A stretch of DNA of 20,000 nt from an uncultured virus (IMG/VR IMGVR_UViG_3300030372_002776) (lineage: Duplodnaviria > Heunggongvirae > Uroviricota > Caudoviricetes), in the IMG/VR virus record IMGVR_UViG_3300030372_002776; one strand, given 5' to 3'. Of this stretch, positions 1-19,999 are shown one piece after another (the first letter of the stretch is position 1; each line of letters begins with the position of its first letter). A program made the position numbers and the translations under genes. The notes under the pieces are model-generated. The model was not told the DNA's origin and did no database searches. It worked only from the letters and a program-made list of their open reading frames with translations.

Positions 1-3000
1 ATTAGGAAGTACTTCAGGACCCCAATATCTTCCATTTACAGAACATCCGGCTCTATTTCCACAACAGATAACTGGGCCAGCGCATGTTGTACCGTCTCCT
101 CCACCAAATCCTTGACGAGGGCAAACTATATCATCACCCAGATCATTAAATGATTCACAAAGACAACAAACTTCCCAAGCTACCTCTGCACCAAAATCCC
201 CCCAATTGTCGCCTTGACCGCTATACTGTGTGCTATTCCAAGTATCAATAATATCTTGATTTTGATAGTCCCCTGATTCCATCATCTTAATTACAACGGC
301 TTCTTTGCAGCTTATTAAAGAGGCTTCAGGTATATCATAGATAAAGCTGGGTTGGCTGTTTTGTAAACCTAATCTTTTTGTTGTAATATTTCCGGGCCAT
401 TCTGAAGGATCTCCGCTTTTAGAATTTACATATAAACATTCAAAATTATTAGATCCATCACAGCAAGCACCAAATGCGTTATCATTTACTCCGCCGGGAC
501 CGCCGCCGTCATCATTAGTGCAGTTTGCTCCTCCTGAGGAGCAATCTTCTTTTCCACATTCACAAGTACCTTGATCAACACCATTGCCGTCATTATTATA
601 AGAAGTACAAAGAGAATTTAAAGGGAAAAATTGACTTGCATTAGCTAATTTAGCTTCAGCGCATTCACAAATTTTGAATAAGGTTTTATTTCTAAAGCCA
701 GAAAAAATTCCTTCGGTACACTCTCTCCATTCCATGCTTCCTTGTAATATAGAAGAAGCACCTCCTAAACAACTTAATGGTCTCTTAGTGATAGCATCAG
801 TATTTCCAAGAGAATCAGCAAAAGCATTTACTCCGGGCTGTGCATAACTTCTATAAAATCCTTCCCACCATTGAAGATATCTAGGAGGAATTCGATTAGA
901 TGTATTTTGTCTATGAGCAGTATGAACTGACTCAGGAATAGGCATAGATATACCAAATACGCATCTATTTTGTGCCGAATCTGTGTTTAAGTTATTGCCT
1001 CCGCCTCCTGAGTCATCAGAACATTTATCAGCTTCTTCTATTCTAAATAAATAAAGACCAGCAGGAATTACATAAGTAGAACATTCATATCTAAACCTGT
1101 TAAAGTTTTCTCCATTAAGTTCTTCTCTTGTTCCGTTTCCTGTTCCAGAAGCCTTAAGAAATTGTTTTCCTGTTTTTGTGTCTTTAGCTGTATGTTTAAT
1201 TCCAATAGTAAAGGTAGGCATAAAAGTATGCCCTCCAAAGTTTTGTCCTCTGCCTCCATCTTCAATATCAGTTGAAAAATTATATTTTCCATTAGAAGAA
1301 TAAACATCGAATTTAGCTTCTATTTTTCCTGAAGCAGCATTAGCAGTATAATTGTAATGAACAGGAGCATAACTAGGAATTCCTAGTCCAGTATACGCTG
1401 TTCTTCCATAAAATCTATTTTGAGAATCTACAGGATCTAAAGAAGAAGGCCGATCAAGGCCATCTTGTACTTCTGAGGCTGTGCAAGCCAGTGTTTTACC
1501 GCTTTCATTATTTAGAACAACTTCGGTATTTGCGTCATCGTTAGAATCGGTTAAATCCGCAAAACTAAGTCCTCCAAAAGTACTTTGTTCATAATCTCCT
1601 TGATATATAGATACATTTGCTCCTACATCTTCTTTGCATTGTATTTGAGTTCCTACTTGAATACTTCCTCCTAAACCATATTGATATCCTCCATATACAT
1701 AATATGAGCCATTTGAGTTCTCATACGGTCTTGGAATATAAGGAGTAGTAGAAGAGTTGTTTTCAGGAGTTATCATACATGCACTAGCTCTGTGATTGTT
1801 TTGTTTTGCGTGTTCGGCCACATCAATCACATTGCCAGTGTTACTAAATTTATTTTTTTTAAAAAGCTCTTCAATAGTAGAGTCTCCGTTTCTACTTCCC
1901 TCGCCTGTTCCTCCTACAACGTCATTACTATCTTCTAAATACCTTCTATCTAATAGAATCGATGCATTGGCGGTATTTTCTTGAGTATCTTCTAAGAAAA
2001 CAGCGGGATCTGTAACCCAGTGAATTACTCCTCCTTGATTATCTTGAATAGAACTAAGTTCATAATGGGAAACATAATTTTCTGTATCATTTGGATTAAT
2101 ACTTAGTCTTGTTCCTACTCCATTATTTTCTTTTGGACATTCAAAAGCATAATCTTTATTTCTATTTACAGTGCCAAAAGAAAGAGGGAGTGCATCTACT
2201 AAGTTACAGCTTGCTTTTGTATTTCTAATATAAGTAAATACTAAACGAAGTTTGTCAGAGGCATCTTCTTCTCCGCTAAGACCAACTTCTTCTGGTGCGC
2301 CCCAAGGTGGTCCGCTTATTCCCTCAGCAACTGTTGTTTTTGCTATTTTTTGTCCAGAATCGTCCCAATTAGAAAAAACTTCTGCGCTGCTTAAACAATC
2401 TTCAAATCTTGAATCAGAAACAGCAGCATTTGCCCAAGGATTATCTGCGTCTGTAAGATCAAACTCTCTTACAATAGTAATTGTTTCAGGGAGATACTCA
2501 CTTGTTTTACAGAAGTCTGAATAATCTTCTAGTTTAAGCTCTGCCCCTTGACTTCCTGTTGCTGCATTGGTTCTTGTACAAGGATTTCCTCCTTGCCACT
2601 TTGTATTATCTGTAGTATTTCCTGTATTTAAACCACTAAGAATAGTTCCGGTTCCAAGTTGCGCGGTATTTGCGTTACTTGCAGAAGCGTTATAACAAGA
2701 TGAACCATTTGCTTCTGCAATGGCAGATTCTGTTCCGTAATACACAGTAGAGCCGTGAGGATTCATTCTAAAATGAATTTCATCAACATGACCTAGTTTA
2801 AGTTCTTTGATAGCTCCTTGAGTCCCTGTATAGGAACTACCAACTGTTGGAGGGAACTGAGAAAAGCCAATAACCTTAAAAGCTCTGTATACTGCTCTAT
2901 TTGTATTATAGGCACCATCAATTGCGGGATCAATCTTCATGACAACAAAGGTTCCCTTGTTGTCTCCGGTCTGTGTCATATTATCTGACTTGTTTGTACC

Positions 3001-4311
3001 GCCTACAAAGGAAGCTAGGGGATCTACGTCACACGCAGTTTTAAAAGCTGCGTTAGCAGTAGAGGTATTGTTTTCTGCCTCTCCGGGCGTTGTCTTAGTA
3101 ATATAGACCCCTTCGCCATGAAGCTCCACCATAACCTTGTCAAGCCCGTGTCCGTTTGCGCTTTCTACAATTGTTTTAAAATTAATTGCAGTTTGTGGAG
3201 CAGAAGTTACTCCTAAGAACTCTTGGTTTGCGGCATTGGGAGAACCTGTGTTTTTTAGTTTATAGGTTTTTGTTTCACCGCCTGCTGTAATTGTAAACTC
3301 CCCAGTATTAGTTCCATTAAATCCGCTTCCAAACTTAAAGTAGTTACTCGCTCTATTAGCACCACTACAGAAGTTTAAAGGAACCCTGCTTTCTGATCCA
3401 CCATATTGTTGATTAAAGTTTTGTTTACTTGTACTATCAGAAGCAAAAGTAATCTTGCCTGCTGTTAGTAGAGTTGAGTTAGGTACTTCTCTTGTAGTGC
3501 CGTCACCGGGGGCTGCAAGTGCATGGGAGGGTGTATTATAATCAGTACCTGTTTGAGCAGCATTTGGATTAATATAATGGGGGTGATTACTATCTCTAAC
3601 TTCTTCTAACAAGGGAGTATAGTCTAAGTAAAAATAGGTATTTCCCATATCGTCTGGAATGCCGTCTTGTACTGTAGCAGATGATTCATCGTATGATTTG
3701 TAATCAAAGTTTTCTTCATCTTCTCTAGTTCTTCCTGTTGGGCAGGTATCGTGAGTTGTTGTATAAGGATTTCCTGCTGGTGTATCTTGTTCAATTTCAC
3801 ATGTAGGCCATGCAAATCTTTCAAAAATATTGCTATCTGAGTGATCATCTTGATTAAATTGAAAATAATCGTTGCAATCACATTGAGCTAAAATAGCATA
3901 TAATCTACCATACCTTTGACCGCCTCCGGCATCATCTTTAGTATTTTTATGAGTAATATGATATCTTAAACAATCTTCGCAGTTTGCTAAGTTTACAGTT
4001 CCGCTCTTAGAGTCGTTTACAAAATTAAGTTGACTGATATTAGTACTATAACTTAATCCTCCAGTAGGAACTTCATCAGCAGTTCTTGCACCCGAAGCAG
4101 TCATCTGATCAGTAATAACAGGGCCATAGCAGCAATTTTGGTTATCTCTAAAATAATGACCTGTAGTATATGCTCCGGCATTTCCATATAAGTTTTCTGG
4201 AACCCAAAGACCATGTGAATCATTTAAACTGTTTCCGATACGAGAAATGGTTTCGGAAACTTCTGCTTTGTTGAATTTTGTACAACAACAGTTTCTGTTA
4301 TTACTCGGCAT
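1..4311 (-). CDS. Giant Cys-rich putative virion/tail-associated protein, >1437 aa, 3'-truncated by the window edge (not in the ORF track)
   Basis: ATG at 4311-4309 preceded by AAGGA overlapping the upstream stop. I translated the frame by hand down to position 1 and found no stop. Starts MPSNNRNCCCTKFNKAEVSETISRIG and ends ...CAGPVICCGNRAGCSVNGRYWGPEVLPN at the edge. G/N/S/T/D-rich with Cys clusters at both ends. The CDS is well supported; the function is inferred from position. Confidence 0.9.
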   Translation of the reverse strand, partial: MPSNNRNCCCTKFNKAEVSETISRIGNSLNDSHGLWVPENLYGNAGAYTTGHYFRDNQNCCYGPVITDQMTASGARTADEVPTGGLSYSTNISQLNFVNDSKSGTVNLANCEDCLRYHITHKNTKDDAGGGQRYGRLYAILAQCDCNDYFQFNQDDHSDSNIFERFAWPTCEIEQDTPAGNPYTTTHDTCPTGRTREDEENFDYKSYDESSATVQDGIPDDMGNTYFYLDYTPLLEEVRDSNHPHYINPNAAQTGTDYNTPSHALAAPGDGTTREVPNSTLLTAGKITFASDSTSKQNFNQQYGGSESRVPLNFCSGANRASNYFKFGSGFNGTNTGEFTITAGGETKTYKLKNTGSPNAANQEFLGVTSAPQTAINFKTIVESANGHGLDKVMVELHGEGVYITKTTPGEAENNTSTANAAFKTACDVDPLASFVGGTNKSDNMTQTGDNKGTFVVMKIDPAIDGAYNTNRAVYRAFKVIGFSQFPPTVGSSYTGTQGAIKELKLGHVDEIHFRMNPHGSTVYYGTESAIAEANGSSCYNASASNANTAQLGTGTILSGLNTGNTTDNTKWQGGNPCTRTNAATGSQGAELKLEDYSDFCKTSEYLPETITIVREFDLTDADNPWANAAVSDSRFEDCLSSAEVFSNWDDSGQKIAKTTVAEGISGPPWGAPEEVGLSGEEDASDKLRLVFTYIRNTKASCNLVDALPLSFGTVNRNKDYAFECPKENNGVGTRLSINPNDTENYVSHYELSSIQDNQGGVIHWVTDPAVFLEDTQENTANASILLDRRYLEDSNDVVGGTGEGSRNGDSTIEELFKKNKFSNTGNVIDVAEHAKQNNHRASACMITPENNSSTTPYIPRPYENSNGSYYVYGGYQYGLGGSIQVGTQIQCKEDVGANVSIYQGDYEQSTFGGLSFADLTDSNDDANTEVVLNNESGKTLACTASEVQDGLDRPSSLDPVDSQNRFYGRTAYTGLGIPSYAPVHYNYTANAASGKIEAKFDVYSSNGKYNFSTDIEDGGRGQNFGGHTFMPTFTIGIKHTAKDTKTGKQFLKASGTGNGTREELNGENFNRFRYECSTYVIPAGLYLFRIEEADKCSDDSGGGGNNLNTDSAQNRCVFGISMPIPESVHTAHRQNTSNRIPPRYLQWWEGFYRSYAQPGVNAFADSLGNTDAITKRPLSCLGGASSILQGSMEWRECTEGIFSGFRNKTLFKICECAEAKLANASQFFPLNSLCTSYNNDGNGVDQGTCECGKEDCSSGGANCTNDDGGGPGGVNDNAFGACCDGSNNFECLYVNSKSGDPSEWPGNITTKRLGLQNSQPSFIYDIPEASLISCKEAVVIKMMESGDYQNQDIIDTWNSTQYSGQGDNWGDFGAEVAWEVCCLCESFNDLGDDIVCPRQGFGGGDGTTCAGPVICCGNRAGCSVNGRYWGPEVLPN

Positions 4312-4324
4312 TTATATTTATTCC

Positions 4325-5836
4325 TTATCCACATAAGCCTTGTGAGACGTTTGGCATACTAAAGTAGTAAAATGGGGGAGACGGAGTATACATTGATCCG
4401 TCTGTTTCTTTTCCAATCGAGGGGGAAGAGTTCGCTGGTACACTTCCTTGGAAGTTTGTTCCTGCACCTCTGCCGCCGGGAGGAAAGAGGCCAGAATAAT
4501 TATCTTCTCCAGATACGCTTGCGGTCCATCTTTCATGCATAACAACAATTGTTCCGGGCATAATAGGCTCAACAGTATAGTTTTGAGGAAATTGTCTTTT
4601 TGCATATAGTTTACTAGTAGTGGTTGTAGATGAGGTCAATTTAGACGTAATTTCTTTAACATGAGCGGTGTCGTGTCCTGCGGTATCGTTATTAGAATCA
4701 GTTAAAGACATACCTGCGCCCATTACACCATAGCCATCAGTTGCTGCCCCAGAGGTATCCGAAGACACATAGAAGTTTGACATCTCTGCTGTATTTAATG
4801 CATAGAAATATCCGTTATTGGTTCCTCCGGTTGTTGGATCAACGCTCTTCCATGTTCTTGCTTGTGTTGAATTAATTGCAGGCGTTTGTGTAGTAGCCCC
4901 GTATTGCATAAATAGACCATCAAGAGTTGGTAATGATCCATCCCAATTTCCGCCTGAAAGTTTAGGATCATATTCACCAGAAACAATACTCATTGATATT
5001 CCAGTAACATTGCCATCCGTTGGATTAGTCACAGTTAATCCAGCAGATTTATAGAGGGAATCAGAGATATTAATATTTTCTGGAACATCTCTTGTAAGAA
5101 TAATACTATTTGTACTTAACTCTTTTGTAGCGGTATGAAACCTAATTGTTGATGTATTATTTGTAATAGTACCGAGACCAGTAGCGGTAGTACTAGACTG
5201 AGTAATATTATTCCAAGCACTTTCCCAGTTAGTTAAAAATTGAGCAATTGTATCAGAATTGACGGTTCCGGTTAAATCGTGATCTAATTTTAAACTAAAC
5301 TCCGCTAGACTTGTGGTATATGATGGGTCTGCAAGAGCAACGGCTTGGTTTGATCCTGCGTTTGTTCCATACAGAGTTACGGGAAGTTTAAAGGTAGTAG
5401 TAACATCATTAGTTCCCCAAGTGTTATTAGCAAAGGTAAAGGTAAGTTTTACTTGGTGAGCAATTGGAGTTCTGATTGCAACTTCTTCCCATTCATACAT
5501 CCATCTGTTTTCATTGGTTGACGAATCAGCAGCATCATACGCAGGTCCTGCTGCTGCGTTTCTTGTACCCATAGCAGTATGCCCAGTAATTCGTGCAAGA
5601 AATACCTGTCTGTCTAGCTGTTCTCTGATTAGATCAATAGTAGCCGCTCTAGAGATAAACCTTTCTCCTACAGCACTATCTCCATAGTGTACATAAAGTT
5701 CTGCGGGATTTGCGGTTTTGTCTGCGGATTGTACGGGATCATCTGGTAATGATACTGTAACTTCTCCATGTGCGCCCGTAGTAAACACGGCATGTTCTGC
5801 TGCCGTTCCTCTTCGACGCTTAACTTGCTTAGCCAT
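4325..5836 (-). CDS. Tail fibre/adaptor-like protein with Mtd-like (major tropism determinant) N-terminal domain
   Basis: N-terminus MAKQVKRRRGTAAEHAVFTTGAHGEVTV...ELYVHYGDSAVG resembles the Bordetella phage BPP-1 Mtd N-terminal motif (VQFRGGTTAQHATFTGAAREITVD...VVVHDG). T/S/N/G-rich body, AAGGAG RBS, directly downstream of tail tubular B. Confidence 0.75.
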   Translation of the reverse strand: MAKQVKRRRGTAAEHAVFTTGAHGEVTVSLPDDPVQSADKTANPAELYVHYGDSAVGERFISRAATIDLIREQLDRQVFLARITGHTAMGTRNAAAGPAYDAADSSTNENRWMYEWEEVAIRTPIAHQVKLTFTFANNTWGTNDVTTTFKLPVTLYGTNAGSNQAVALADPSYTTSLAEFSLKLDHDLTGTVNSDTIAQFLTNWESAWNNITQSSTTATGLGTITNNTSTIRFHTATKELSTNSIILTRDVPENINISDSLYKSAGLTVTNPTDGNVTGISMSIVSGEYDPKLSGGNWDGSLPTLDGLFMQYGATTQTPAINSTQARTWKSVDPTTGGTNNGYFYALNTAEMSNFYVSSDTSGAATDGYGVMGAGMSLTDSNNDTAGHDTAHVKEITSKLTSSTTTTSKLYAKRQFPQNYTVEPIMPGTIVVMHERWTASVSGEDNYSGLFPPGGRGAGTNFQGSVPANSSPSIGKETDGSMYTPSPPFYYFSMPNVSQGLCG

Positions 5837-5846
5837 GTCTTACTCC

Positions 5847-8800
5847 TTAGTTTCTAATAGATGACATTCGTGGTGAGAATATTCCACGGAATTCTATGTT
5901 AGCAATATTTACTGGTTCGTGATAGCTGCTGACAAATGATATTTCAGCATTATGAGCAAAGCTCATTACTTTAGCCATAAACTCCCCGTTTTCTTGTACA
6001 CCAAGATGGGAAGAAGTAAAGGATTCAGAGTTTATCCTTTGTTTATAGAAAGGATCTGTAATAACAATATCTGTATTATTATTATACTGTTTTCTTTTTA
6101 CTTCAAAGTTAAATTTTCCTGTTTTATAAAACTTCATAGAAATATTTTTGATATTTAAGACACCATCTAATGCATTATTGGTTTGATCTCTGAATACTAA
6201 TTCGGATAAGGTAGCTCTCATTGTAAAGGAAGTACCAAACCAGTTTTCTGTTTTCTTTGCTTCATTGTCTAAGAAGTTAAATAAAAGACCATATTCTAAA
6301 AATTCTTGTATATACCTATCTGCATTTCTTCCAAAATCTTCAAAAGAACTAGCAGTTATTTCTATTTGTCCATAATCTTCTGTTGAGGTTACATTAGAAG
6401 ATCTTTGATCTCCACTTACTGTAACCTGTGTTTTTTTGCCATTATTCGAAATAGAAGAAACAATAGTTAATTCTTCTCCAATATCGGTTTGATTAAGTCC
6501 TACAATAGCTTTATCTAATTTAGAATTATGAACAGGAAGAGTAAAAGTTGTATTGCCTGAAGAAGAACTGTATACAGTATTGAAATTTATATTTGTAATA
6601 ATGCTTTTTACTTTAAAGTTTGGAGCAACAGTAGTTCCCGGTAGGTTTTTAAAATCAACTCGATTTCCTACTTCAAAACCTTTACCGTGTTTTAATATTT
6701 CCCACTGAACAGGAACACCGTATACACTATAAACATCCCCTATGTTTTTATCTTCGTGTTTTGTAATTCGTATACTAAGTCCTGTTCCACTTCCAGAAGT
6801 AGTATTTTGTTCTAAAACGTCTCCCTTTCTATATCCTTGAGGAACTTTATAGTTTACAGACTCTGGTCTAACTGCAAAAGTTCCGTTCTTTGAGGTATTG
6901 ATAGTGGGATTAGATCCGGGGTCTGGAGCAACATCAGGAAGTCCTGAAATAGACGCAGAAGTAAGAACATTAGTATTAGTTGGTTTTCGATACAAGTTTG
7001 ACAATTGACTATCAGCGGTTAAAATACCTTCGACGCTATCATCAGCTATTCCTAAATCACTTGGAAGTAAATACCCAGATCCTCCTGATTGAAGCGCAAC
7101 GGATTTTATTTTTCCTATTGTCTCTACTTCAGTAACTTGAAGAATTAATCCAGATCCGGGGTTTGTATTAATATTTCCGCCAGCAGAACCCGGAATAACT
7201 TTGTTTTCAAATGTTAAAGTATCTCCTACCTGATAGCCTGAAGTATTGTTACTTTTTATCGTAAAAGTAAGAATTTTACCCCAATCGCTTTCTATTTCTT
7301 TTACTTTTAATAAGTCTTCAAAAAGACTCATAGAAACTCTTCTATCAATTCTAGGATATGTTTCATCTTCAGTGACTACCGAAGTTTTTTGAATAAAGAA
7401 TTGGCTTGATTCTTCTCCGCTAGGTTTTTTATACGGCCTTAAAACAACCGAATATAAAACATCGTCAATAAAGTTTATACTTTTAATTCTATCTGTTGTA
7501 TCGGTTGTCCACTTATGAAGTGAGTTTTGAATAATTTTATCGCCCGAAAATCTACTTGTATAAAAATACAACACATTTTGATTTTCTCTATCAACTAAAG
7601 TAATTAAGCTTTTAATAGCAGAAGTAGCGATGTCTTGGAATGTTTTAGGGAGATATCCTTCAGCTTGGAAAGTTACTTCTGCTGCATTTGCAACATTTGA
7701 TGATCCTGATCCGTAATATAAATAAATTTTCTGAGGAGCAAAGAAATAAACTTGAGATCCTAATAATTGAGGTTGAGTTACTGGATCAGTAGAATAAAAT
7801 GCAGTTGCTTGTAGTTCTGCTGTTAGTGGAGTAATTTGATTCTCAGAACCAAGTAGTTCAAATTGAATATCGTTTAAGGTTGAAACAAACATATAGCTTT
7901 CAAAAGGAACTAAATGGCTAATTGTAACAAGATCTCCTCTTCCTGTTCTAACATCAACAGGATCAGTATCAACAATATTATCAGGATCATCGATCCACAG
8001 ATTAAAGAAGTCTCCTACTTTAGAACAGAAAACATTGTCTTCTGCACACATCCAAAATCTATCTCTCCAAAAAGTAACGTCGTTTATTTTCTTTCTAACC
8101 CTTTCGTTATTTGCTCCTATAAAAGCGGATGGTCCGGGGTTTGTAGAAAGCGTTCCAGTTAATCTATCTTTAAACGGAGCTTTTAAAAATCTCCAAGTAT
8201 TTTCTGAAGTTACAAAGTCAAAAAGCAATGGCATTGTTCGTGTATCAAAAGAACCATAAGGGGACTCTGCTCTTACTTGTTCATAAAAAGGAGATCCTCT
8301 ATCTTCAAACGAAACAGTTCTAAAGAATGCCGAAGGTTTAGTAAGATAAGATTCTCTTGTTACAAATACCTTGCCTCTTCCGTCTGCATCTCCTACTGTA
8401 TCTTCAGCATACAAAAAGGATAAGCTTTCTTCTGCTCCGTTTAAGTCTGTAAAATCATCATCGTTTGTTGGAGGAATAGGAATTAATGAAAAGTTTTGTA
8501 TTGATTGACCAATATCAAGTGCGGTAGAAGTAGATAAAACAATGTTATCACCAATAGGTTGATGCTTTGATCTGTTGTATTTAATTTTAAGATCTTCTGT
8601 AAAATTTAAATCCATTTCTTTATTGACATAAAGACTATCTTGACTTGCTGCCGCAAAGAAATTAACATCAGTAATATATGGTACTTTTGGAATGTCTAAA
8701 ATAGCTCCTGTGCTTCCTTTAATTTGTTTAAGTACAACAGAGTTACTGTCATTATCTAAAGTTAAAGCATGTGTAGCATTTAATAAATTTAATTTTGTTC

Positions 8801-11576
8801 CGTCATCGCTACTAGGAGCCGTAGCTGCTCGTATAAAGTGATTTAAGGTTGTTAAAGTATCACTAGGCTGTAAAACCGCTCCTTTTCCAGAGCCAGTAAG
8901 ACAAGAATATCTTCCAGAAGTTAATTGTTGATCTACTCCCGCGTTGATTGTCTCATTAACTGAATTAGTAAGATCAACTTCATGAAGAATAGGTTCTGAA
9001 ATATCTGTAGTAATACCGTTATTAATAATTCCTATGTTATTAATTTGTTTTTGAGAAGTAATTCCCATTTCTCTTAAAACAGTTTGAGGGTTAAATAAAA
9101 GAGTATTTGATTTTTCTGACCCTCTATGAATAAATTCATATGTTGCTCGGTTTATCCCACTATTCCAATCTTCTGGATTAGGTCTAGGATCGCCTGATGT
9201 ACCAAATGTAAAACCGGGCATATCGTGGAATTTAATTATTATGTCTTTTGTTGACCCAGCTAAAGGTGGAATTCCTTCTTGAGTAAATCTTCCGTTAGAA
9301 TATCCTTCTCCGGGTTCATCAATGGTTATGGTTAATTCTCCAATATTCCAAACCAAAGATGCGGTTACATCAGGAACTGCGCCGCTATCTGTTTGTGTTC
9401 CGTAGACTCTTTTATCTGAAGGATATCTAAATGTCCAACTGCCGCTAAACCTAGTTCCTTCAGAATCTAACCCAATAAAGTCATCGTCGCTTCCCCCGCT
9501 AAATCTAGACTCCATTGTAATTGTGCCATTGGCTGTAAAAGGAATATTATGGGTTGTAAAATCATCAGTACCGCTGACAATCGCATTAGCTTTAGTTATT
9601 GCTGAATGAAAAGGAAACATTAGATTAACAAATGAGTTTTTGTTTGCTCCTGTTGTTAAATAAAAAGGCACTCCTTGACCAAACCCAGTAAAAGTATTAA
9701 AACTTACATTAGAAGGATTAATTGTATTTCCGTATTGGTTTCCTCCACTAGCAACAATAGGACCATTCATAAAAGATCTATAAGTAGAATCTATAGATGA
9801 TGGATAAAAATCGCTATCAACTGCATGACCGGGATACCAGTTGGTTCCTATAAAGTTTGGTGTAATATTTCCTAAAGGTTTTTCTGCAACGGAAAAAACA
9901 AACTCTAATTTGTTTTGAAAAATTTCAGATACTTGTCCAACACCTAATGGATTCATATTTGTTTCACCATAAGAAGTTAATCCAAGTCTTGTTCCTGTAT
10001 TGTCAAATTTTACACAGCCCTCTCCACCAATATCAACGTATTTTTGTATAATAGGAATTGGATCTTCTGTTAATCTGTCACAAATAAATAGTCCATTAGT
10101 ATCTTTATTTATTTTTAATTTTGCGTTTCCTCCGGACCTAGCTACTATTTCCATTAGTGTTTTTATAGTAGCTTCTTGATCTCCTGTAGAGATATTAAAA
10201 TCAACTTGAGTTGTTACCGCTCCGTTTTCATACCAAACACTTCCTAAAGCATAATTATGATTTAGTTCTCCGTAATTCCATCCACACCCTGCTTGTGTTT
10301 GAAAGTCTGCACCATCGGGGTTAAATCGAGAACATCTAGAATTTAAATCAATTCCGTTTAAATCAATTAGTCTAGTTGTTTCAGTAATTTCAGGAGCTTG
10401 AAATCCTAAAGATCTAGGAAAGGCTGAAGTTCGATATTTTATCTCTTCTCCGCCAAAATCTTTTTCGGTTTTTACTAGTTTAATTCTATATCTAGAACCA
10501 TCATTTTGAACTCTAGGAATAATTCCTTCTGTTTTTCCAATATCATCTTTAGTAAATTTTATTTTAGCGAATCTAGATTTATGATTAAGTAATACAAATT
10601 GTCCTAAAAAGGAGCCGTAATAATTATCACTACTGCTTGAACTTTCATATATTTTAATAATATCCCCTTTACTAAAAAGGGGATTTTCTTCATTAAAGTC
10701 TTTAAATGTTCTTTGAAGGTTTCCGGCCTTATCGCCTTTTTGGTCTATTTCATATCCGTTAAAAAATCCGCTTTCATCAAATTGAATAATAAATTCAATT
10801 ATTACTGCTGAATTAGAATTTACATCATTATGTTCGTATTCTTTTATAATAATTGGGTTTTCATCAAAATCTGTTTTATATAATTCTTTGTATCCTGCTT
10901 TTACTTCTTTATTTAAAAGAATAGCAGAAGTACCAAAAGCTTTTAATTTTATTAAATTATTTCCTTCTCCTGTTTTATATCCTTCACGAATATAATCAAT
11001 AACGTCTTTAGTAACGCTTCCATAATCAACTGATTGTAAGCTTAGGTTTTTTTCTTCTATTTTCCATACGGTAATAAACTTTTTCTTATAGTTTAAAGAG
11101 TATCCAGAATCGTATGAATTAGACAAAGAATTCCAAACATAATCTTGTGTAGATCCTTGAACTTCTTCTATTGTTGTGTTTCCGTCTTTGTCTTTAATTT
11201 CTACCGTTGTAGGAGGAGACTGAGTAAGTCCAACATTAATAGCTATTAAAAATTCATTCGTTTCGTCTACTGTAAGCCATTTAAAAAAGAAATCATCTTC
11301 ATCGTCTGGGATATAAATTTCGGTTCCTGTTGATCCACCAATAGTTAAATCTAAAGTATTAAATACCATAGCATTTGGAGCTAAATCAACATCCTCAACG
11401 TATTCTTCTGCTTTACCGGGAAAATAATCAAAACCATTTCTTTTTTCAAAAGAGTTTTCAATAGTTAAAAATACATTATCTAATTCCTGAGCTTCTGAAG
11501 GTAATCGTTTTGTTACCGGCTGCCTGCCGACTCCTCCGGCAAGAGAATAAATAGGAAGTCTAATTTGTTGTGACAT
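5847..11576 (-). CDS. gp12: Tail tubular protein B / nozzle (T7 gp12-like), enlarged to 1909 aa
   Basis: N-terminus IYSLAGGVGRQPVTKRLPSEAQELDN...EKRNG resembles gp12 IKNLKGGISQQPDILRYPDQG...QKRPP. Core TMPLL...GTLSTNPGPSAFIG..KINDVTFWRDRFWMCAEDNVFCSKVGDFFNLW...DTDPVDV resembles gp12 TMPHAL...GDVDTNPWPSFVGSSINDVFFFRNRLGFLSGENIILSRTAKYFNFY...DDDPIDV. Syntenic after the gp11-like gene. Confidence 0.92.
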   Translation of the reverse strand: MSQQIRLPIYSLAGGVGRQPVTKRLPSEAQELDNVFLTIENSFEKRNGFDYFPGKAEEYVEDVDLAPNAMVFNTLDLTIGGSTGTEIYIPDDEDDFFFKWLTVDETNEFLIAINVGLTQSPPTTVEIKDKDGNTTIEEVQGSTQDYVWNSLSNSYDSGYSLNYKKKFITVWKIEEKNLSLQSVDYGSVTKDVIDYIREGYKTGEGNNLIKLKAFGTSAILLNKEVKAGYKELYKTDFDENPIIIKEYEHNDVNSNSAVIIEFIIQFDESGFFNGYEIDQKGDKAGNLQRTFKDFNEENPLFSKGDIIKIYESSSSSDNYYGSFLGQFVLLNHKSRFAKIKFTKDDIGKTEGIIPRVQNDGSRYRIKLVKTEKDFGGEEIKYRTSAFPRSLGFQAPEITETTRLIDLNGIDLNSRCSRFNPDGADFQTQAGCGWNYGELNHNYALGSVWYENGAVTTQVDFNISTGDQEATIKTLMEIVARSGGNAKLKINKDTNGLFICDRLTEDPIPIIQKYVDIGGEGCVKFDNTGTRLGLTSYGETNMNPLGVGQVSEIFQNKLEFVFSVAEKPLGNITPNFIGTNWYPGHAVDSDFYPSSIDSTYRSFMNGPIVASGGNQYGNTINPSNVSFNTFTGFGQGVPFYLTTGANKNSFVNLMFPFHSAITKANAIVSGTDDFTTHNIPFTANGTITMESRFSGGSDDDFIGLDSEGTRFSGSWTFRYPSDKRVYGTQTDSGAVPDVTASLVWNIGELTITIDEPGEGYSNGRFTQEGIPPLAGSTKDIIIKFHDMPGFTFGTSGDPRPNPEDWNSGINRATYEFIHRGSEKSNTLLFNPQTVLREMGITSQKQINNIGIINNGITTDISEPILHEVDLTNSVNETINAGVDQQLTSGRYSCLTGSGKGAVLQPSDTLTTLNHFIRAATAPSSDDGTKLNLLNATHALTLDNDSNSVVLKQIKGSTGAILDIPKVPYITDVNFFAAASQDSLYVNKEMDLNFTEDLKIKYNRSKHQPIGDNIVLSTSTALDIGQSIQNFSLIPIPPTNDDDFTDLNGAEESLSFLYAEDTVGDADGRGKVFVTRESYLTKPSAFFRTVSFEDRGSPFYEQVRAESPYGSFDTRTMPLLFDFVTSENTWRFLKAPFKDRLTGTLSTNPGPSAFIGANNERVRKKINDVTFWRDRFWMCAEDNVFCSKVGDFFNLWIDDPDNIVDTDPVDVRTGRGDLVTISHLVPFESYMFVSTLNDIQFELLGSENQITPLTAELQATAFYSTDPVTQPQLLGSQVYFFAPQKIYLYYGSGSSNVANAAEVTFQAEGYLPKTFQDIATSAIKSLITLVDRENQNVLYFYTSRFSGDKIIQNSLHKWTTDTTDRIKSINFIDDVLYSVVLRPYKKPSGEESSQFFIQKTSVVTEDETYPRIDRRVSMSLFEDLLKVKEIESDWGKILTFTIKSNNTSGYQVGDTLTFENKVIPGSAGGNINTNPGSGLILQVTEVETIGKIKSVALQSGGSGYLLPSDLGIADDSVEGILTADSQLSNLYRKPTNTNVLTSASISGLPDVAPDPGSNPTINTSKNGTFAVRPESVNYKVPQGYRKGDVLEQNTTSGSGTGLSIRITKHEDKNIGDVYSVYGVPVQWEILKHGKGFEVGNRVDFKNLPGTTVAPNFKVKSIITNINFNTVYSSSSGNTTFTLPVHNSKLDKAIVGLNQTDIGEELTIVSSISNNGKKTQVTVSGDQRSSNVTSTEDYGQIEITASSFEDFGRNADRYIQEFLEYGLLFNFLDNEAKKTENWFGTSFTMRATLSELVFRDQTNNALDGVLNIKNISMKFYKTGKFNFEVKRKQYNNNTDIVITDPFYKQRINSESFTSSHLGVQENGEFMAKVMSFAHNAEISFVSSYHEPVNIANIEFRGIFSPRMSSIRN

Positions 11577-11578
11577 AT

Positions 11579-12331
11579 TCAGCCCTTTGCCTTCCAGTAT
11601 CGTATATCTCTTCTATGACCAAAGTTTCGACGAGTAGCTCTTACAATAGCATTATCGCCTACGGAGAAGATATTTCTTTTTCTGTCATTAATATCAGATG
11701 CTTTAGCCTTAGCCATAAACATCTGCTCACGGCCCCCTAGAAGCTTGTCTGCGCCTGCGTCTCCCTGAGTAGCCATTTGGTACATTCTTTCAGCGGTGGC
11801 TGTAATGGCCCTCTGCGTGGCTGTGTCGATGTTCTCGAAGGATACAAAAAGATCCATGAGAACTGTATATTCAGTATTGAGATCAAATTCAGCGGTTTGA
11901 TTTGTAGTATTATAAAGAAAGTTTTTATTTGCGTCTGCGGTTACAATAGTTCCTAGACCTGTAAAAGTACTTCCAATTCTATCAAAGCCATAAATAAGCT
12001 TTCCATCTGTATCATAATGAGGCGAAATAAGCTCTGCTGAAATAAGAGATCCATCTGTAGGAGTATCAGAATATGCGTATCCTAAATCAATATATCCGTT
12101 GCCTGACGAGGGTGTAACGCTGCTTGCGCTTAGGGCTGTAGCTGAGGGGGTATATTTCTTTTCAAACTGATTATTAGTAAGGCCTCTAATTTGGTAGTCC
12201 ATTACTACTTGATTAAAAATCTGATTTGCTACTCCTGTTTCGACTGACGTATCTGTTAACGCTGTAATGATAGATTCACCGGATGCTAAAAGCATTTGGT
12301 TAATACAGTCAAGCTTACTCATCAAGCCCAT
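11579..12331 (-). CDS. gp11: Tail tubular protein A / gatekeeper (T7 gp11-like)
   Basis: SKLDCINQMLLASGESIITAL resembles gp11 [20 protein letters not shown]; C-terminal FENIDTATQRAITATAERMYQ helix pattern; lies between capsid and tubular B; AGGAG RBS. Confidence 0.88.
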   Translation of the reverse strand: MGLMSKLDCINQMLLASGESIITALTDTSVETGVANQIFNQVVMDYQIRGLTNNQFEKKYTPSATALSASSVTPSSGNGYIDLGYAYSDTPTDGSLISAELISPHYDTDGKLIYGFDRIGSTFTGLGTIVTADANKNFLYNTTNQTAEFDLNTEYTVLMDLFVSFENIDTATQRAITATAERMYQMATQGDAGADKLLGGREQMFMAKAKASDINDRKRNIFSVGDNAIVRATRRNFGHRRDIRYWKAKG

Positions 12332-12430: not shown

Positions 12431-13750
12431 TTAACCGAATGGGTAGTTTGAAGTACCAGCGGTTGAACCGAAGTCTGCAACCATATGCATAAGAGCGCGG
12501 GCATCTGTGCCTGCGCCTGCTGCACGGGTAATACTAGCGTTCGAGCTAACAAGAGCAACACATTCTGGACGTAAAGTACCAGTTCCGCCCATCATGGATG
12601 CAACGGTAAAGTTGGTGTTACGTCGAACGTCTTCTACGGTATCAACCTTCATGCCTTGAAGCGAGAGCGCACAAACTGACTCTGGCTTCCACATGATTGA
12701 TTGTAGATTAGCATCTAAGAAGCCAAGGTTATACTTATCATCACCAATAGCATCAATAGCTGCGGTAGTAGCATAACCACCATTGTCTTGACCCTTATTT
12801 TCACCAGCAATGTTCTTGACATTTCCGGCAAACAAAGTCTTAAGGTGGTTGCTCTTAACGATAGTCATTCCCATGTAATCAAGGGTATCGCTAAGTGCGT
12901 TGTAGCCATCTTCAAGACCATTACCAAGACCACCAGCTTCTGCAACACCACCGAACATTGGGCGACCAGCACCACCAAGTAGGGAGGAGTTATCTCTGGC
13001 TACACCAAGGGCGCGGATGTCAGCAAAGGTTTGTGGGGTAACAGCGCAGAAAGTTCCTTCTGCAAGAATGTTGTTTTCCTGTAAGTGAACATGGAATTCT
13101 TCAATCTGCTGTAGAAGGAGAAGGGCTGCATCAGTTCTCTGAGCAGCAGTACCACTTCCGCTGGCATTACCAAGGTGAGCATGAGTAGCTGAACCAAAGA
13201 TCTTACCGGCAATGTTACCAGAGCTTTCACCAGCAGTTGCGTTAGAAGTAAATGCAGTACCATCAGTGGCACCAGCACGAACGAGAGCCGCAAGAATCTG
13301 CTTATCTCTAGCGTTAGCAAGAGTAAGACCAGATTGACGAGCAAGCTCACTACGGTATTCCCACTGTGAAATCATAGCATCAATGTTATCAATTTCAAAG
13401 TGAGCAGCGTAAGGACGATTGTCCAAACGAACGGCAATGGTATCAGAACCATAGCCATTAGTTGGCTGGTTACCGAGTAGCTCTTGACCAGCACCCCATG
13501 ATGCCTTAAGATCAACAGTACCAGTAACGGGGAATTCCATTACGCGGCCACTGGAGATGGTTTTAGCAGTTACGAGGGGTTCGAAAACTCTATAGTGATC
13601 GTAAGCAGTAATAACTTCACCGGACCATACGGGAAGCCATAGTTTATTAGCACCAGATACGCCGCCGGTGGTTCCGAGGAATGCCTCTGCGTTATATGCA
13701 TTACTTGCATTTGCGCCGCGACCAAATCCCATATTAGCTAGAGCAGTCAT
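12431..13750 (-). CDS. gp10: Major capsid protein (T7 gp10-like, HK97 fold)
   Basis: LWLPVWSGEVITAY...KTISSGRVMEFPVTG resembles gp10 LFLKVFGGEVLTAF...RSISSGKSAQFPVLG; YRSELARQSGLTLANARDKQI and C-terminal VASMMGGTGTLRPECVA also match the family pattern. GAAAGGAAA RBS; lies downstream of the scaffold gene. Confidence 0.95.
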   Translation of the reverse strand: MTALANMGFGRGANASNAYNAEAFLGTTGGVSGANKLWLPVWSGEVITAYDHYRVFEPLVTAKTISSGRVMEFPVTGTVDLKASWGAGQELLGNQPTNGYGSDTIAVRLDNRPYAAHFEIDNIDAMISQWEYRSELARQSGLTLANARDKQILAALVRAGATDGTAFTSNATAGESSGNIAGKIFGSATHAHLGNASGSGTAAQRTDAALLLLQQIEEFHVHLQENNILAEGTFCAVTPQTFADIRALGVARDNSSLLGGAGRPMFGGVAEAGGLGNGLEDGYNALSDTLDYMGMTIVKSNHLKTLFAGNVKNIAGENKGQDNGGYATTAAIDAIGDDKYNLGFLDANLQSIMWKPESVCALSLQGMKVDTVEDVRRNTNFTVASMMGGTGTLRPECVALVSSNASITRAAGAGTDARALMHMVADFGSTAGTSNYPFG

Positions 13751-13919: not shown

Positions 13920-14855
13920 TTATAACTGACCGCCTTGAGCTTCATAAGTTAAACGTAACTTATTCTCAACAGCGGCTCTGTATTTTGGATCTCTAGTATA
14001 TCTTTTATCTCTCATTGCAGCAAGCATAAGATCCCGAGAACCAAAAGGTTCTTCTACGGAACCAACATTAGCTGTTGGCTGTGCTTGTTCTACCATGCTG
14101 GTAGGCTCTTTTGTTTTCTGAGAGGATACAGAAGATTCATACTTAGTTTTTAACCCAAGCATTACGGTCTCCCACGCAGGGGTTCGCAATCCTTCGTTAA
14201 TTTTAGCTCGTTCGTCAGCAGGAAGATTCTTGGAAGCCCATGACATAAGAGTGTTAAGCTCTTGCTCAGACCCAACTACATTAGCTGCTTCATTAACAGC
14301 TTGCTTCATCATAGCTTTTCTTCCGGCTACAATTTCATTGATAATAGCATCTTGAACACCGAATTCAGCTTTGATAGATTCTCTTGTAGCGTCTGTAAGA
14401 TTTCCATTATTATTATCAATTTCAAGTCCCCATTCAGCCCAGTTTTCAGGTTGAATAACTTTACCATTAGGAGCCACCGTTTCCTCTGGCTCTTCTGAAG
14501 GAGCTTCTGGAATTTCCAGCTTATCCATATCTAACTGAGGAGCTTCCTCTACAGGAGCCTCTGGCTCTTCTGGAGCCACATAGTTGGGGTTTTCGGTCCC
14601 TTCTTGGTATTGTTTCTTTAGATCAGAAACCTCTTGACGGGCCTTAGTATACTCTGCTTGTGCGCCCTTGAGTGAATCAAACCACGCACCGGCATCCTTA
14701 AAGTTCTCAGGAATTGCCTCTCCGTTTTCCTGTACATGCCTTTCAAAGGCTTGTCTTTCATTGTTTACTTGAGTTTGTTCTGGAGTCATCCCTTGAGATT
14801 GTTCCGTGGTTGTTGCTTCTGGAGCAGCCTGTGGAGTCTCGTTATTATTATCCAT
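13920..14855 (-). CDS. gp9: Capsid assembly scaffolding protein (T7 gp9-like)
   Basis: Acidic E/P/A-rich protein. C-terminal FGSRDLMLAAMRDKRYTRDPKYRAAVENKL resembles gp9 FADRSEMIKAMSDPRYRTDANYRRQVEQKV; VVGSEQELNTLMSWASKNL matches the central helix motif. Immediately upstream of the capsid gene. Confidence 0.92.
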   Translation of the reverse strand: MDNNNETPQAAPEATTTEQSQGMTPEQTQVNNERQAFERHVQENGEAIPENFKDAGAWFDSLKGAQAEYTKARQEVSDLKKQYQEGTENPNYVAPEEPEAPVEEAPQLDMDKLEIPEAPSEEPEETVAPNGKVIQPENWAEWGLEIDNNNGNLTDATRESIKAEFGVQDAIINEIVAGRKAMMKQAVNEAANVVGSEQELNTLMSWASKNLPADERAKINEGLRTPAWETVMLGLKTKYESSVSSQKTKEPTSMVEQAQPTANVGSVEEPFGSRDLMLAAMRDKRYTRDPKYRAAVENKLRLTYEAQGGQL

Positions 14856-16068: not shown

Positions 16069-17724
16069 TTAAGGGGCGGCATCGCCAGTATATAATACGG
16101 ATACGGGAGTAGAAGTCATAAGAGGAGGACCATCTTTAAAAGCATGATCTGAAGGAAGGTTTCCCGCGAGGCCCCATTTATGGGCTAAATAACCTTCAAC
16201 TCTTTCTCTTGGATTATCAGCAATATCGTTGCTAGATCCTAAATCGTAAAATAAAAATTCTTTTATTGTACCATTAAAATAGTCTTGTCTTGTAACATTT
16301 CCATGTCTATCTTCTACTTTTGTAACTCCAAGGTCAACATTTCCAGTAGCTAAATTTAGATTTTTATTATTTGTTGCGCTTACTTTTCCATCTCCGTTTA
16401 CATAAATAGAGCATAATCCATTTGATCCATCTCTATGAACAGTAAGCATATAAGTAGTATTTGTAGCTAATGCGATTGTTTTTTGTACATTTTGATCTAA
16501 AAATCCACCTTGTTTTAAATCAAAAGATCCGTTTGGAGTAGCATCATCATCTACTTTATAACGAAGATACCAGTTTACTTGAAATGAAGATTTATCAAAA
16601 ATAGTTCTGTATGCATCATCTGTAAAAGACGAAGGAGTCGTAAATACAACAAACATAGCATATCCATTTGTTCCTATATTAAATCCTGAAGGAGATGCTT
16701 TTTCAAAGTATTGGCTTGTTCCATTAAAGGAAAACTCCATATCGCTAGAATCAGGTATTAAAATAGTTGTAGGTGAATTTACTGGAGTAAGATCATTTCC
16801 TGTTGCACTAAAATCTTTTATATTAACAGAAGTCGTAAATTTATCTTCAGTATTTAAGTTTCCTTGATATTGTTCTGCTTTATACCACGCTTTTAGTTCT
16901 GTATCTGTAGTGTCATCCATAACATTAATTGGAGTTAATGTCCAGCCGTTGCTATCAGTAGTAGTTAATGTTCCCGTTCCGGGGGCCGTAGGATTAGATA
17001 AATTAACAAAATTAATATAAGAATTTCTCAAGTTAGTGGATGTGCCAGTAACAGCACCCCCTACATTAACATAATCTTCATCAAAAGATCCCCCTCCAGT
17101 AATTAATCCTTTTGCTTTATCATAAAAAGATTTATGGACTTTTCTAAATACAGAAAGAGTATATGCACCTATATAGATATTTTCATTTACAATAAAAGAA
17201 TAATTTCTTTTTCGCGTCTGTGATTCTCCTCCTGTAAAATCTGTCATGGTTATTTCTCCACCAGTAACTAAGCCTCCTGATGGACTAGAAGCAATATTTC
17301 CTGAAGAGCCTTGTACACTACTAACCGCTAAGGTTATTACATTGTTGCTTCTAGTAACGCTGTCCCAGCCAGTCTGGATCGGAGTGGCTATAAGAGTGAG
17401 AGAATTAAAAATAGCCTCTGCTGAGTCTTCTAAAGACGAAATATCAGAAGTTCCAACTAAAGTTGATGTACTTTGAGCTATTGTTTTGCTACTATCTGTT
17501 GTAAGAGTTGTAGGTTGAACCCCCGTACCATAAATAACACTATCGTAAAGAGAATTAAAAACAAAAGTTTCTCCGTTAGATCCAGCTAAGGTTCCTGCAA
17601 CAGTAATTTCAGCCGAAGCACTATCATTACCTTCAAACAGTCGCTTCCCTTTAATAGAAAGAATAGGGCTATTAAAAGTAATCTTTGGCACAGAGGAATC
17701 TGCTACTATTTGATTATAAGCCAT
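16069..17724 (-). CDS. Virion protein with N-terminal sheath-insert-like module and C-terminal LamG/concanavalin A-like lectin domain
   Basis: LKAWYKAE...IKDFSATGNDLT...FNGTSQYFE...AMFVVF...IYVNG...YFNGTIKEFLFYD...RERVEGYLAHKWGLAGNLPSDH follows the LamG-like pattern of phage adhesion proteins. AAGGA RBS. Confidence 0.75.
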   Translation of the reverse strand: MAYNQIVADSSVPKITFNSPILSIKGKRLFEGNDSASAEITVAGTLAGSNGETFVFNSLYDSVIYGTGVQPTTLTTDSSKTIAQSTSTLVGTSDISSLEDSAEAIFNSLTLIATPIQTGWDSVTRSNNVITLAVSSVQGSSGNIASSPSGGLVTGGEITMTDFTGGESQTRKRNYSFIVNENIYIGAYTLSVFRKVHKSFYDKAKGLITGGGSFDEDYVNVGGAVTGTSTNLRNSYINFVNLSNPTAPGTGTLTTTDSNGWTLTPINVMDDTTDTELKAWYKAEQYQGNLNTEDKFTTSVNIKDFSATGNDLTPVNSPTTILIPDSSDMEFSFNGTSQYFEKASPSGFNIGTNGYAMFVVFTTPSSFTDDAYRTIFDKSSFQVNWYLRYKVDDDATPNGSFDLKQGGFLDQNVQKTIALATNTTYMLTVHRDGSNGLCSIYVNGDGKVSATNNKNLNLATGNVDLGVTKVEDRHGNVTRQDYFNGTIKEFLFYDLGSSNDIADNPRERVEGYLAHKWGLAGNLPSDHAFKDGPPLMTSTPVSVLYTGDAAP

Positions 17725-17733
17725 AGATTATCC

Positions 17734-19007: not shown

Positions 19008-19130
19008 TTATTTTTTTCTTTTTGAATACGATTTTGAAGACATTTTACTGCCTGTCTTCTTGGCATATTTTTTAGCTGCCTCTTTACCTGATTTGGTATA
19101 AGGGAATTTCTTTTTTCCTACTTTTGGCAT
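19008..19130 (-). CDS. 40-aa Lys-rich basic protein (not in the ORF track)
   Basis: Hand translation MPKVGKKKFPYTKSGKEAAKKYAKKTGSKMSSKSYSKRKK*. TAATG stop/start overlap with the upstream gene and GAGGA RBS. Confidence 0.8.
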   Translation of the reverse strand: MPKVGKKKFPYTKSGKEAAKKYAKKTGSKMSSKSYSKRKK

Positions 19131-19477
19131 TATTTTTTCCTCTTTCGTGGTGGTCGTGGTACACTTGGTCTGGGGGACCGAGGGGCATCAGGGTTTCTTG
19201 GTGGTCGAGGCCTTACTCCCGGTTTGTTGGGACCGCCCCTACTCCCTGCTGGTCTGTCTCTTCCCTTCGCAGGTGTGGCGTTGGGTGTAGGCGGCTCGTA
19301 GGGGACGTAGGGGCCGACTCCCGGTCGCATGTGCTTTCTGTGTTCGGGCCACTTATCAGGGTAAAACGTATCTGGGTGAACAAATGGAAAATATGCTCTA
19401 TTTTCTGGCCTGCCAGATCCTTTACTAGATAAGTATCTAGATCTAGAACCAGATCCGTTCATGTTTTTTTTAGACAT
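19130..19477 (-). CDS. 115-aa Pro/Arg-rich basic protein, paralogue of 19625..19999
   Basis: AAGGA RBS inside the end of the upstream gene; N-terminus MSKKNMNGSGSRSRYLSSKGSGRPENR shared with its paralogue; low-complexity R/P tail. Confidence 0.75.
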   Translation of the reverse strand: MSKKNMNGSGSRSRYLSSKGSGRPENRAYFPFVHPDTFYPDKWPEHRKHMRPGVGPYVPYEPPTPNATPAKGRDRPAGSRGGPNKPGVRPRPPRNPDAPRSPRPSVPRPPRKRKK

Positions 19478-19624: not shown

Positions 19625-19999
19625 TTATCTACCTTTTCCTGTTCTACCACGTTTTCTGTTTTTTCGCTCTAATTCTAGAAGCCTTCTGTTTTCGTCTCTT
19701 CTTCTTCTGATAGAGTCCTGTGATTCGCCGGGCCTTCTTCTAACACCATCTTCATCACCGCCACCGGGTTCGCTTGGAGTATCAAACCACGGAGTTTCTG
19801 GTCTACGGACAGGAGAATAGGGTTTTGATGGTGGATCTAATGGAGATCCCTCGGGGTATGGAAGACCCGGAGTATAAAAGCCGGGTAGTTTTCGGAGAGG
19901 ACTATAATCGACGCTTCTATTTCCCGGCCTACTGCCAGATCCTTTAGATCCTGTCATTCTTGCTCTAGAACCAGAGCCATTAAACATATTCTTAGCCAT
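19625..19999 (-). CDS. 124-aa Arg/Pro/Gly-rich basic protein, paralogue of 19130..19477
   Basis: MAKNMFNGSGSRARMTGSKGSGSRPGNR N-terminus aligns with the paralogue, which supports this start although the RBS is outside the window. Arg-rich C-terminus. Confidence 0.7.
   Translation of the reverse strand: MAKNMFNGSGSRARMTGSKGSGSRPGNRSVDYSPLRKLPGFYTPGLPYPEGSPLDPPSKPYSPVRRPETPWFDTPSEPGGGDEDGVRRRPGESQDSIRRRRDENRRLLELERKNRKRGRTGKGR

Follow-up and report, generated by a model that had tools for sequence, protein, structure and literature searches.

In phages of the S16 and T2 type, a trimeric gp37 fiber carries a separate adhesin, gp38, and the joints of these proteins and of fiber-chaperone pairs are non-covalent and poor in cysteine (Cys); tail-tip proteins of the lambda gpL type contain Fe-S clusters. 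Covalent joints have also been described. In the cyanophage Pam3, three Cys of the wedge bond to the three Cys28 residues of a trimeric fiber, and dithiothreitol (DTT) releases the fibers (PMC9942802). In the Agrobacterium phage Milano, Cys makes up 2.1% of structural proteins on average, and disulfides attach the receptor-binding proteins, with all three Cys38 residues of the short-fiber trimer bonded to the baseplate (PMC10811340). Disulfide-rich virions are established, yet are described as rare, and a dedicated thiol oxidoreductase is reported not to have been described in phages (PMC13576161). The RcGTA tail hub is reported to have an Fe-S site with four Cys (PMC7296036). Here, we analyze a 20,000-nucleotide stretch of DNA from an uncultured virus (IMG/VR record IMGVR_UViG_3300030372_002776; Caudoviricetes), referred to as the window, and a Cys-rich gene that lies at its start. 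We propose that this gene, on balance probably, encodes an interchangeable, disulfide-stabilized tip with which a marine, T7-like phage (Autographiviridae type) binds its receptor.

A Cys-rich protein with an N-terminal CCC triplet

The gene encoding the putative receptor-binding tip lies on the minus strand (1..4311). The frame from 4311 to 1 starts with MPSNNRNCCC, has no stop in 1437 codons, and continues past the window, so that residues 1-1437 of 1650 are visible and the gene ends 213 codons past the window edge. The full length comes from a contig (L006) that is identical over all 4311 nucleotides (nt) and contains a complete open reading frame (ORF) of 1650 amino acids (aa) with 50 Cys; a second contig (L001) agrees with the ORF, with 8 mismatches in 4177 nt. 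A preliminary description of the window had reported this uninterrupted frame, counted its Cys by hand, seen no evident signal peptide or transmembrane (TM) segment, and proposed extending the contig to complete the ORF. Its counts, 11 Cys for residues 1-190 and 21 for the 257 last visible residues, are exact. Analysis of composition and hydropathy likewise revealed neither a signal nor a TM segment, the latter because the highest 19-residue hydropathy was only 1.06.

The part of the protein in the window contains 46 Cys (3.2%), and the nine neighboring ORFs have 0-1.4%. The density of the last 257 visible residues was equaled in 2 of 2000 shuffles. Pairs of adjacent Cys were enriched (6 CC compared to 1.4 expected, p 0.0045), as was CxC (5, p 0.015), and there was no enrichment of CxxC (2 in 1437 aa, p 0.44). 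The overall composition is like that of secreted Cys/Gly/Asn-rich proteins. The N-terminal triplet C8-C10 (4282..4290, minus strand), the proposed site of coupling to the anchor protein described below, is invariant in 9/9 members of the family and is a hallmark of otherwise unrelated genes in the same type of cassette.

No match to the protein, full-length or otherwise, was found in Pfam, PHROGs, NCBIfam or INPHARED, and the family profile had 0 matches at E ≤ 1 among PDB sequences. We considered and rejected a planctomycete 'GACC' six-Cys repeat protein: the bead pattern in our rendering (GACC..C..C..G..C..C) had 0 matches in 8/8 family members, and the single GACC is present only in this phage's sequence among the eight. 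The four best matching runs for the sequence were marine metagenomes from three studies, one of them possibly the source, and there were no RNA datasets among the listed runs that matched it.

Conserved Cys residues and a hypervariable region

From 7998 scored candidates, we identified a family of eight full-length members, this one included (1610-1673 aa; pairwise identity 51-84%), and a 1438-aa relative (L013) with 37% identity over 1257 columns. In keeping with the Cys-stabilized protein of the preliminary description, 36 of the 50 Cys are invariant across the eight members, and 29 are invariant across all nine. The motifs CEDC, CDC and CGFC are invariant in the family, and most Cys stand singly in variable loops rich in Gly, Asn and Asp.

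The most variable part of the protein is a Cys-scaffolded region at residues 1176-1430 (22..786, minus strand), recognized from conservation, the ratio of nonsynonymous to synonymous changes (pN/pS) and indels; it is a candidate receptor-contact surface. Conservation in this region was 27% (0.27) at non-Cys positions compared to 91% (0.91) at Cys (see Discussion for the effect of the aligner). Crude pN/pS was highest here in all three informative pairs (1.13, 0.44 and 0.53), a fourth pair of nearly identical sequences having been excluded. Among the marine contigs listed, the region has many substitutions and in-frame net indels. Several distant Cys columns had matching patterns of presence across the nine sequences (725/845, 863/918 and 315/1077), and such joint gain and loss is a modest hint of pairwise bonds.

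A Cys-poor mobile module occupies about residues 292-465 (2917..3438, minus strand). It is common to many unrelated proteins, often in tandem, was the sole matched stretch for 13/16 matches in a representative search, and had no match in the PDB below E 0.2. Two ORFs upstream of the scaffolding gene (16069-18984, minus strand; 416 and 551 aa) apparently contain two copies and one copy of it, respectively, as judged by alignment; the direct BLAST match between the module and the 416-aa ORF was weak (E 0.018). These two ORFs likely encode decoration proteins. The C-terminus of the 551-aa product has what we take to be a likeness to LamG, with no match in Pfam.

An anchor protein with a single C-terminal Cys

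Next to the Cys-rich gene is an ORF for a 503-aa protein (4325..5836, minus strand), the predicted anchor. By direct reading of the sequence, its stop codon overlaps, within TAAGGA (4322..4327, minus strand), what looks like a ribosome-binding site for the Cys-rich gene. The protein has a weakly Mtd_N-like N-terminus, with an equally weak match in two relatives, and a split anchor domain (NRWxYxWxEV ... ALNxxE ... F.MPN..G.C) of about 125 aa, marked by NRWxYxWxEV. Its only Cys is residue 502 of 503 (C502; codon at 4331..4333, minus strand) and is invariant in 5/5 sequences. The ORF matched our anchor profile in three pieces (E 8.6e-7); the seed motif makes this partly circular, which does not apply to the two later pieces. 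A DNA pattern for NRWxYxWxEV, a motif without Cys, identified 21 viral stretches, and a looser pattern at least 120.

Comparisons with family and structure libraries gave little. The anchor matched phrog_9648 (tail) with E 0.003, the anchor alignment gave one weak PHROG match among 19 members, and the profile had 0 matches in the PDB at E ≤ 5. There was no usable match to the anchor in the ESM Atlas, and its N-terminus reached E 0.7 at best in INPHARED.

A recurrent cassette with an exchangeable middle gene

The Cys-rich gene stands second in a cassette of three genes, between an anchor with a single C-terminal Cys and a small ORF with the motif LGD..C(x)xC..R. We scored the neighborhoods of anchor genes for a CCC gene, defined as an ORF with at least 3% Cys that begins with CCC, or with CC and a near Cys, within 3.5 kb downstream. 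There were 36 independent clusters of anchor loci, of which five were dropped (<1.5 kb of downstream DNA) and 31 were scored. A CCC gene was present downstream in 24/31, adjacent to the anchor in 13; two of the 24 are this phage's own lineage. There was no CCC gene upstream of the anchor (0/29), and control windows had 3/108. A Cys was found within the last six residues of 21/31 anchors compared to 40/376 control ORFs, a comparison in which the anchor profile itself favors a terminal Cys. In an out-of-sample set of Phycisphaerae loci, a CCC gene was found within 1.5 kb downstream of the anchor in 7/15 and upstream in 0/15, and two further loci narrowly missed the rule; the set had 30 loci, of which 15 were usable, 11 resembled training rows, two were duplicates and two were too short.

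Lengths of the CCC proteins vary between 136 and 1673 aa, and just five pairs among 26 align at E ≤ 1e-3 (in this comparison L031, L095, L119 and L146 entered with wrong or internal starts). They are mostly unrelated to each other and therefore look like swappable tips. In another T7-like lineage (L094/L149), the anchor gene and the small ORF are homologous, but the gene between them encodes an unrelated protein of 891 aa, with a start ending in SKCC. As judged from these sequences, the replacement of the middle gene is the behavior of exchangeable receptor-binding genes. Nineteen of 20 CCC proteins had no match in family libraries. The one with a Pfam match (L061:5957-8803) contains RCC1 repeats, so that tips can apparently include beta-propeller modules.

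We saw no CCC gene within 1.5 kb of anchors without a terminal Cys (L334, L346 and L354). In others (L345, L349 and L355), the single Cys has moved to 45 residues from the end. The association of terminal Cys loss with an absent CCC gene or a relocated Cys is a hint that the anchor Cys and the CCC are coupled.

Variants of the arrangement were also observed. A Phycisphaerae lineage of the anchor domain without the terminal Cys (L034, L076, L334-L340, L353 and L354) has a conserved ORF of about 190 aa in the next position rather than a CCC gene, with two or three copies in some genomes. In L059, L061, L082, L095 and L031, the ORF after the CCC gene encodes not the LGD type but another kind of small protein with Cys (C..C ... 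C..CGC ... K ... CP..W), and the CCC protein itself ends in a GGCC tail in L010 and L032. Compact versions of the cassette combine an anchor domain of about 130 aa, a tip of 150 aa and a helper of 90 aa. In high-GC anchor loci the cassette comes after tail-type genes, as judged by eye. A literature search, with subscription papers and supplements outside its scope, found no description of such a cassette.

The small ORF downstream of the tip gene

The third gene of the cassette is directly downstream of the tip gene, past the window edge, and encodes 91-108 aa with the motif LGD..C(x)xC..R..LN. A reciprocal scan started from this ORF covered 120 loci and gave 20 true motif matches in 13 clusters, eight of which had enough upstream DNA. 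A Cys-rich gene was directly upstream in 7/8 and an anchor was upstream in 5/8, compared to 4/61 in controls. The sole library match, in 9/16 small ORFs, was phrog_32048, which is of unknown function. Matches in the PDB were empty or at chance level, there was no match in INPHARED, and the ESM Atlas gave only hypothetical viral clusters below 0.9. By its linkage the product is a candidate helper.

The ORF has a PCxxC where a helix probably begins, presumably resembling that of the Erv/ALR sulfhydryl oxidases. We rejected this identity: PF04777 was not found in the small ORFs or in related records (0/5). The family also differs from the Erv/ALR oxidases of poxviruses and giant viruses in that some members have CxC and not CxxC.

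Genomic setting

The minus strand of the window contains, in order of transcription, genes for a T7-type scaffolding protein (13920..14855; PF05396, phrog_1052), the major capsid protein (12431..13750; phrog_267, E 3.9e-31), a T7 gp11-like tail adaptor (11579..12331; PF17212, phrog_446), a T7 gp12-like tail nozzle of 1909 aa (5847..11576; PF25675, E 1.4e-54; phrog_457), the anchor and the Cys-rich protein. The preliminary description had placed the Cys-rich gene after the nozzle; this is correct, with the single 503-aa gene between. In every relative long enough to show both, the Cys-rich gene lies between the nozzle and TerS, the position of the T7 fiber gene gp17. Past the window, related contigs continue with the 91-108-aa ORF, TerS (PF11123, below cut-off), an ORF for a hydrophobic product of 60 aa, several small ORFs with basic products, TerL, a 166-aa ORF and gp14 (PF24072, 29.2 bits, cut-off 27).

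A relative of 65 kb (G807, 96% complete) extends this order. It has gp14 after TerL and then three proteins without Cys (361, 1245 and 3579 aa), which from their position we infer to be the gp15/gp16 equivalents; they had no match to gp15/gp16 families. The preliminary description had suggested that the Cys-rich gene stands where T7 has its internal virion genes, gp13-gp16. We rejected a stand-in role because the gp14-led, Cys-free group lies after TerL in this relative, and the internal virion genes have therefore been moved, not replaced. There was no other fiber candidate between the nozzle and terminase in this relative. The capsid, adaptor, nozzle and post-TerL proteins have 0-1.6% Cys.

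The relative also encodes a single-subunit RNA polymerase (PF00940, E 3e-76), a T7-type portal, DNA polymerase A and a T7-type primase-helicase, and it has matches to PF12236 and PF21268. With this RNA polymerase, the evidence for which comes from the relative and whose gene lies outside the window, and the T7-type head-tail module, the genome is classified by sequence as that of an Autographiviridae-like phage. The capsid gene had matches at about 25% in INPHARED. The Phage_T7_tail domain (PF03906) was found by Pfam in neither the Cys-rich protein nor the 503-aa ORF, and in 0/4 related records, a search in which the control was likewise empty.

Several other features of these genomes stood out. 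The nozzle (5847-11576, minus strand) is more than twice as long as the 794-position Pfam profile and is 1888-1915 aa in relatives; its large insertions had no family match. Two basic ORFs rich in Pro, Arg and Gly (19130-19477 and 19625-19999, minus strand) have near-identical starts, MSKKNMNGSGSR and MAKNMFNGSGSR, and no match in Pfam or PHROGs. In relatives that span the stretch from TerS to TerL (L001:5625-6676; L002:15804-16844), there are three to five small, Lys-rich, very basic ORFs, one of them a DUF6321 protein. In the L002/L004/L009 lineage only, a 111-aa ORF before TerL (L002:16841-17176) ends in IPGPGAL, a hydrophobic stretch and RPRRK, which we take to resemble the PEP-CTERM-type tails of Phycisphaerae; there was no NCBIfam match. 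The 166-aa ORF between TerL and gp14 (L002:18857-19357) has a GxxRxGTS motif that is presumably reminiscent of sulfotransferases, and no match in Pfam or PHROGs. The Cys-free 3579-aa protein that ends the gp14-led group (L200:2602-13338, minus strand) contains an ART-PolyVal domain (E 2e-22), and this ADP-ribosyltransferase-domain protein is possibly an ejected host-modifying enzyme.

A probable host

A search of genomes with the anchor motif gave 27 pattern matches, of which 21 were due to chance and six were true. All six were in Planctomycetota records, five of them Phycisphaerae. The anchor profile matched 27/401 Phycisphaerae genomes (two of which were seeds) and none in two control phyla (0/201 in each; 0/402). 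A smaller anchor profile used phylum-wide matched only 3/401, one of them the seed. The phage host is probably a member of the Phycisphaerae.

Discussion

The preliminary description had suggested a large, external, Cys-stabilized appendage or receptor-binding protein, and this is still the best reading. Given the gene order, the conservation of its Cys, the recurrence of the cassette and the swapping of its middle gene, the Cys-rich protein is very likely a virion appendage. Its Cys quite likely form disulfides rather than metal sites: they are conserved where the flanks vary, CxxC is not enriched, and some widely separated Cys columns are gained or lost jointly, all of which are hints of disulfides. 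Conserved Cys on both partners, C502 and the CCC triplet, together with the cassette statistics, are also what is found for disulfide-attached receptor-binding proteins.

In the mechanism we propose, an Mtd_N-like N-terminus would attach the 503-aa protein to the virion, and its conserved anchor domain would present one exposed Cys per chain. The 1650-aa tip, probably monomeric, would be held together by some 20 intrachain disulfides that would let residues 1176-1430 vary freely, following host surface receptors. The N-terminal CCC would bond to three matching Cys, one from each chain of a trimeric anchor; we put forward this 3:1 joint tentatively, at somewhat less than an even chance. Such a covalent snap-on joint would let unrelated tips use one anchor. 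The small LGD..C(x)xC..R..LN protein could assist the tip in folding or in thiol chemistry, and a phage-encoded thiol-disulfide catalyst would allow at least 20 disulfides to form in a virion assembled in the cytoplasm; that the small protein is catalytic seems doubtful to us. It is similarly speculative, and in our estimate rather unlikely, that a single plug-and-socket system of trimeric anchor, CCC tips and small catalyst is common to T7-like and unrelated planctomycete phages.

Several observations weigh against this interpretation. In the scan of anchor loci, 7/31 had no CCC gene in range, 11/24 positive CCC genes were not adjacent to the anchor, one of the 24 (L197) is probably a spurious frame, and some anchors have a terminal Cys and yet no CCC gene in range. 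The count of CCC triplets is also partly circular because the rule demanded three Cys. The small ORF was found by motif in only 5/31 anchor loci and matches no redox family in Pfam, NCBIfam or the PDB. The anchor's match to Mtd_N (PF18454; E 0.0036, 17.6 bits) is under the cut-off of 26.3, and its trimeric state is presumed from what we take to be the case for Mtd. Within the family of eight, invariance is equally frequent for Trp and Cys (72% each), and Cys invariance alone is therefore not special. Aligners favor Cys matches in gapped regions, which tempers the 91% Cys conservation in residues 1176-1430; the joint Cys losses were drawn from nine related sequences; and pN/pS was >1 in one pair only (1.13), so that positive selection is not shown. 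AlphaFold2 models had a low predicted local distance difference test score (pLDDT), 27 for residues 1-1020 (10 sequences) and 33 for residues 1020-1650 (13 sequences). The capsid gene of the phage was found in 0/301 Phycisphaerales genomes, so that the anchor family is the basis for the proposed host.

Three other explanations can be set against an exchangeable, disulfide-held tip. The same appendage could use its Cys to bind metals (Zn or Fe-S), in which case the CCC triplet and the anchor Cys would together form a metal site between chains, with the small CxxC protein delivering the metal. The CCC plus one anchor Cys would supply four ligands, phage proteins fold in a reducing cytoplasm, and the CEDC, CDC and CGFC motifs are invariant; the RcGTA report cited above also provides a precedent for a tail-hub Fe-S site with four Cys (PMC7296036). 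Only two CxxC are present in 1437 aa, however, without enrichment, Cys columns are gained and lost as pairs and not in fours, and most Cys stand singly in variable Gly/Asn/Asp-rich loops, and we consider metal binding unlikely.

The cassette could instead encode a head fiber or an appendage of the capsid vertices, for decoration or initial adsorption, and not a tail receptor-binding protein. The lack of the T7 gp17 N-terminal anchor PF03906 (found in 0/4 records, with the control also empty) and the sharing of residues 292-465 with many proteins, probably including the ORFs upstream of the scaffolding gene, would fit such a role, but the nozzle gene precedes the cassette here, genes that by eye are of tail type precede it in the high-GC loci, the interval between nozzle and terminase has no alternative fiber candidate, and the tip has a hypervariable region; a head location is quite improbable. 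It is very improbable that the Cys-rich protein is absent from the surface of the mature virion, being ejected with the internal proteins or acting in the infected cell, for example folded in the large planctomycete periplasm. Its composition is like that of secreted Cys/Gly/Asn-rich proteins and its place in the virion is itself a prediction, but it has neither a signal nor a TM segment, the group that gp14 leads lies apart and is free of Cys, and linkage to a tail-like gene is tight across unrelated phages.

If the protein is an exchangeable, disulfide-stabilized tip, then the cassette is a likely host-recognition module of a large group of uncultured Phycisphaerae phages, one not described in the literature searched, and the anchor profile combined with the CCC start offers a route to finding receptor-binding genes and guessing hosts. 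Disulfide-attached appendages would be extended from myophages to a T7-like podophage, and the presence of 50 Cys in one exchangeable protein would make it more pressing to ask how disulfides arise in phages. With the compact forms of the cassette, the 3:1 joint and the redox role of the helper can be tested directly in vitro.

Compared with known systems, the T7 gp17 slot is the same, after the nozzle and before TerS, and is filled here by an Mtd_N-like anchor and a separate Cys-rich protein, in which PF03906 was not found. The likeness to S16/T2 gp37-gp38 lies in the constant shaft, the variable tip gene and the small downstream helper gene, with no family match here. As in lambda gpL and the RcGTA hub, conserved Cys are found in a tail-tip protein, here a putative one; those proteins have four Cys in one hub domain, whereas here there are 50, mostly outside CxxC, and no family match. 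No homology was found to the solved proteins of the Pam3 and Milano type, with 0 PDB sequence matches for the tip family or the anchor profile. Milano, with NBD2 gp39 and PD491P1, shows that disulfide-rich virions exist (PMC10811340, PMC13576161); in the Milano group, sheath, tube and baseplate all contain Cys, and here they are concentrated in one swappable protein. The geometry would be the same as that given in the Pam3 report for the joining of the gp24 fiber to the wedge proteins gp22 and gp23 (PMC9942802). That joint is between the baseplate and fiber of a myophage and uses scattered Cys, whereas in this podophage the three Cys would be contiguous, at the N-terminus of the tip, and the trimer would be on the virion side. 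Belonging to no catalogued family, the predicted tip resembles the disulfide-attached receptor-binding proteins in the way that it would work.

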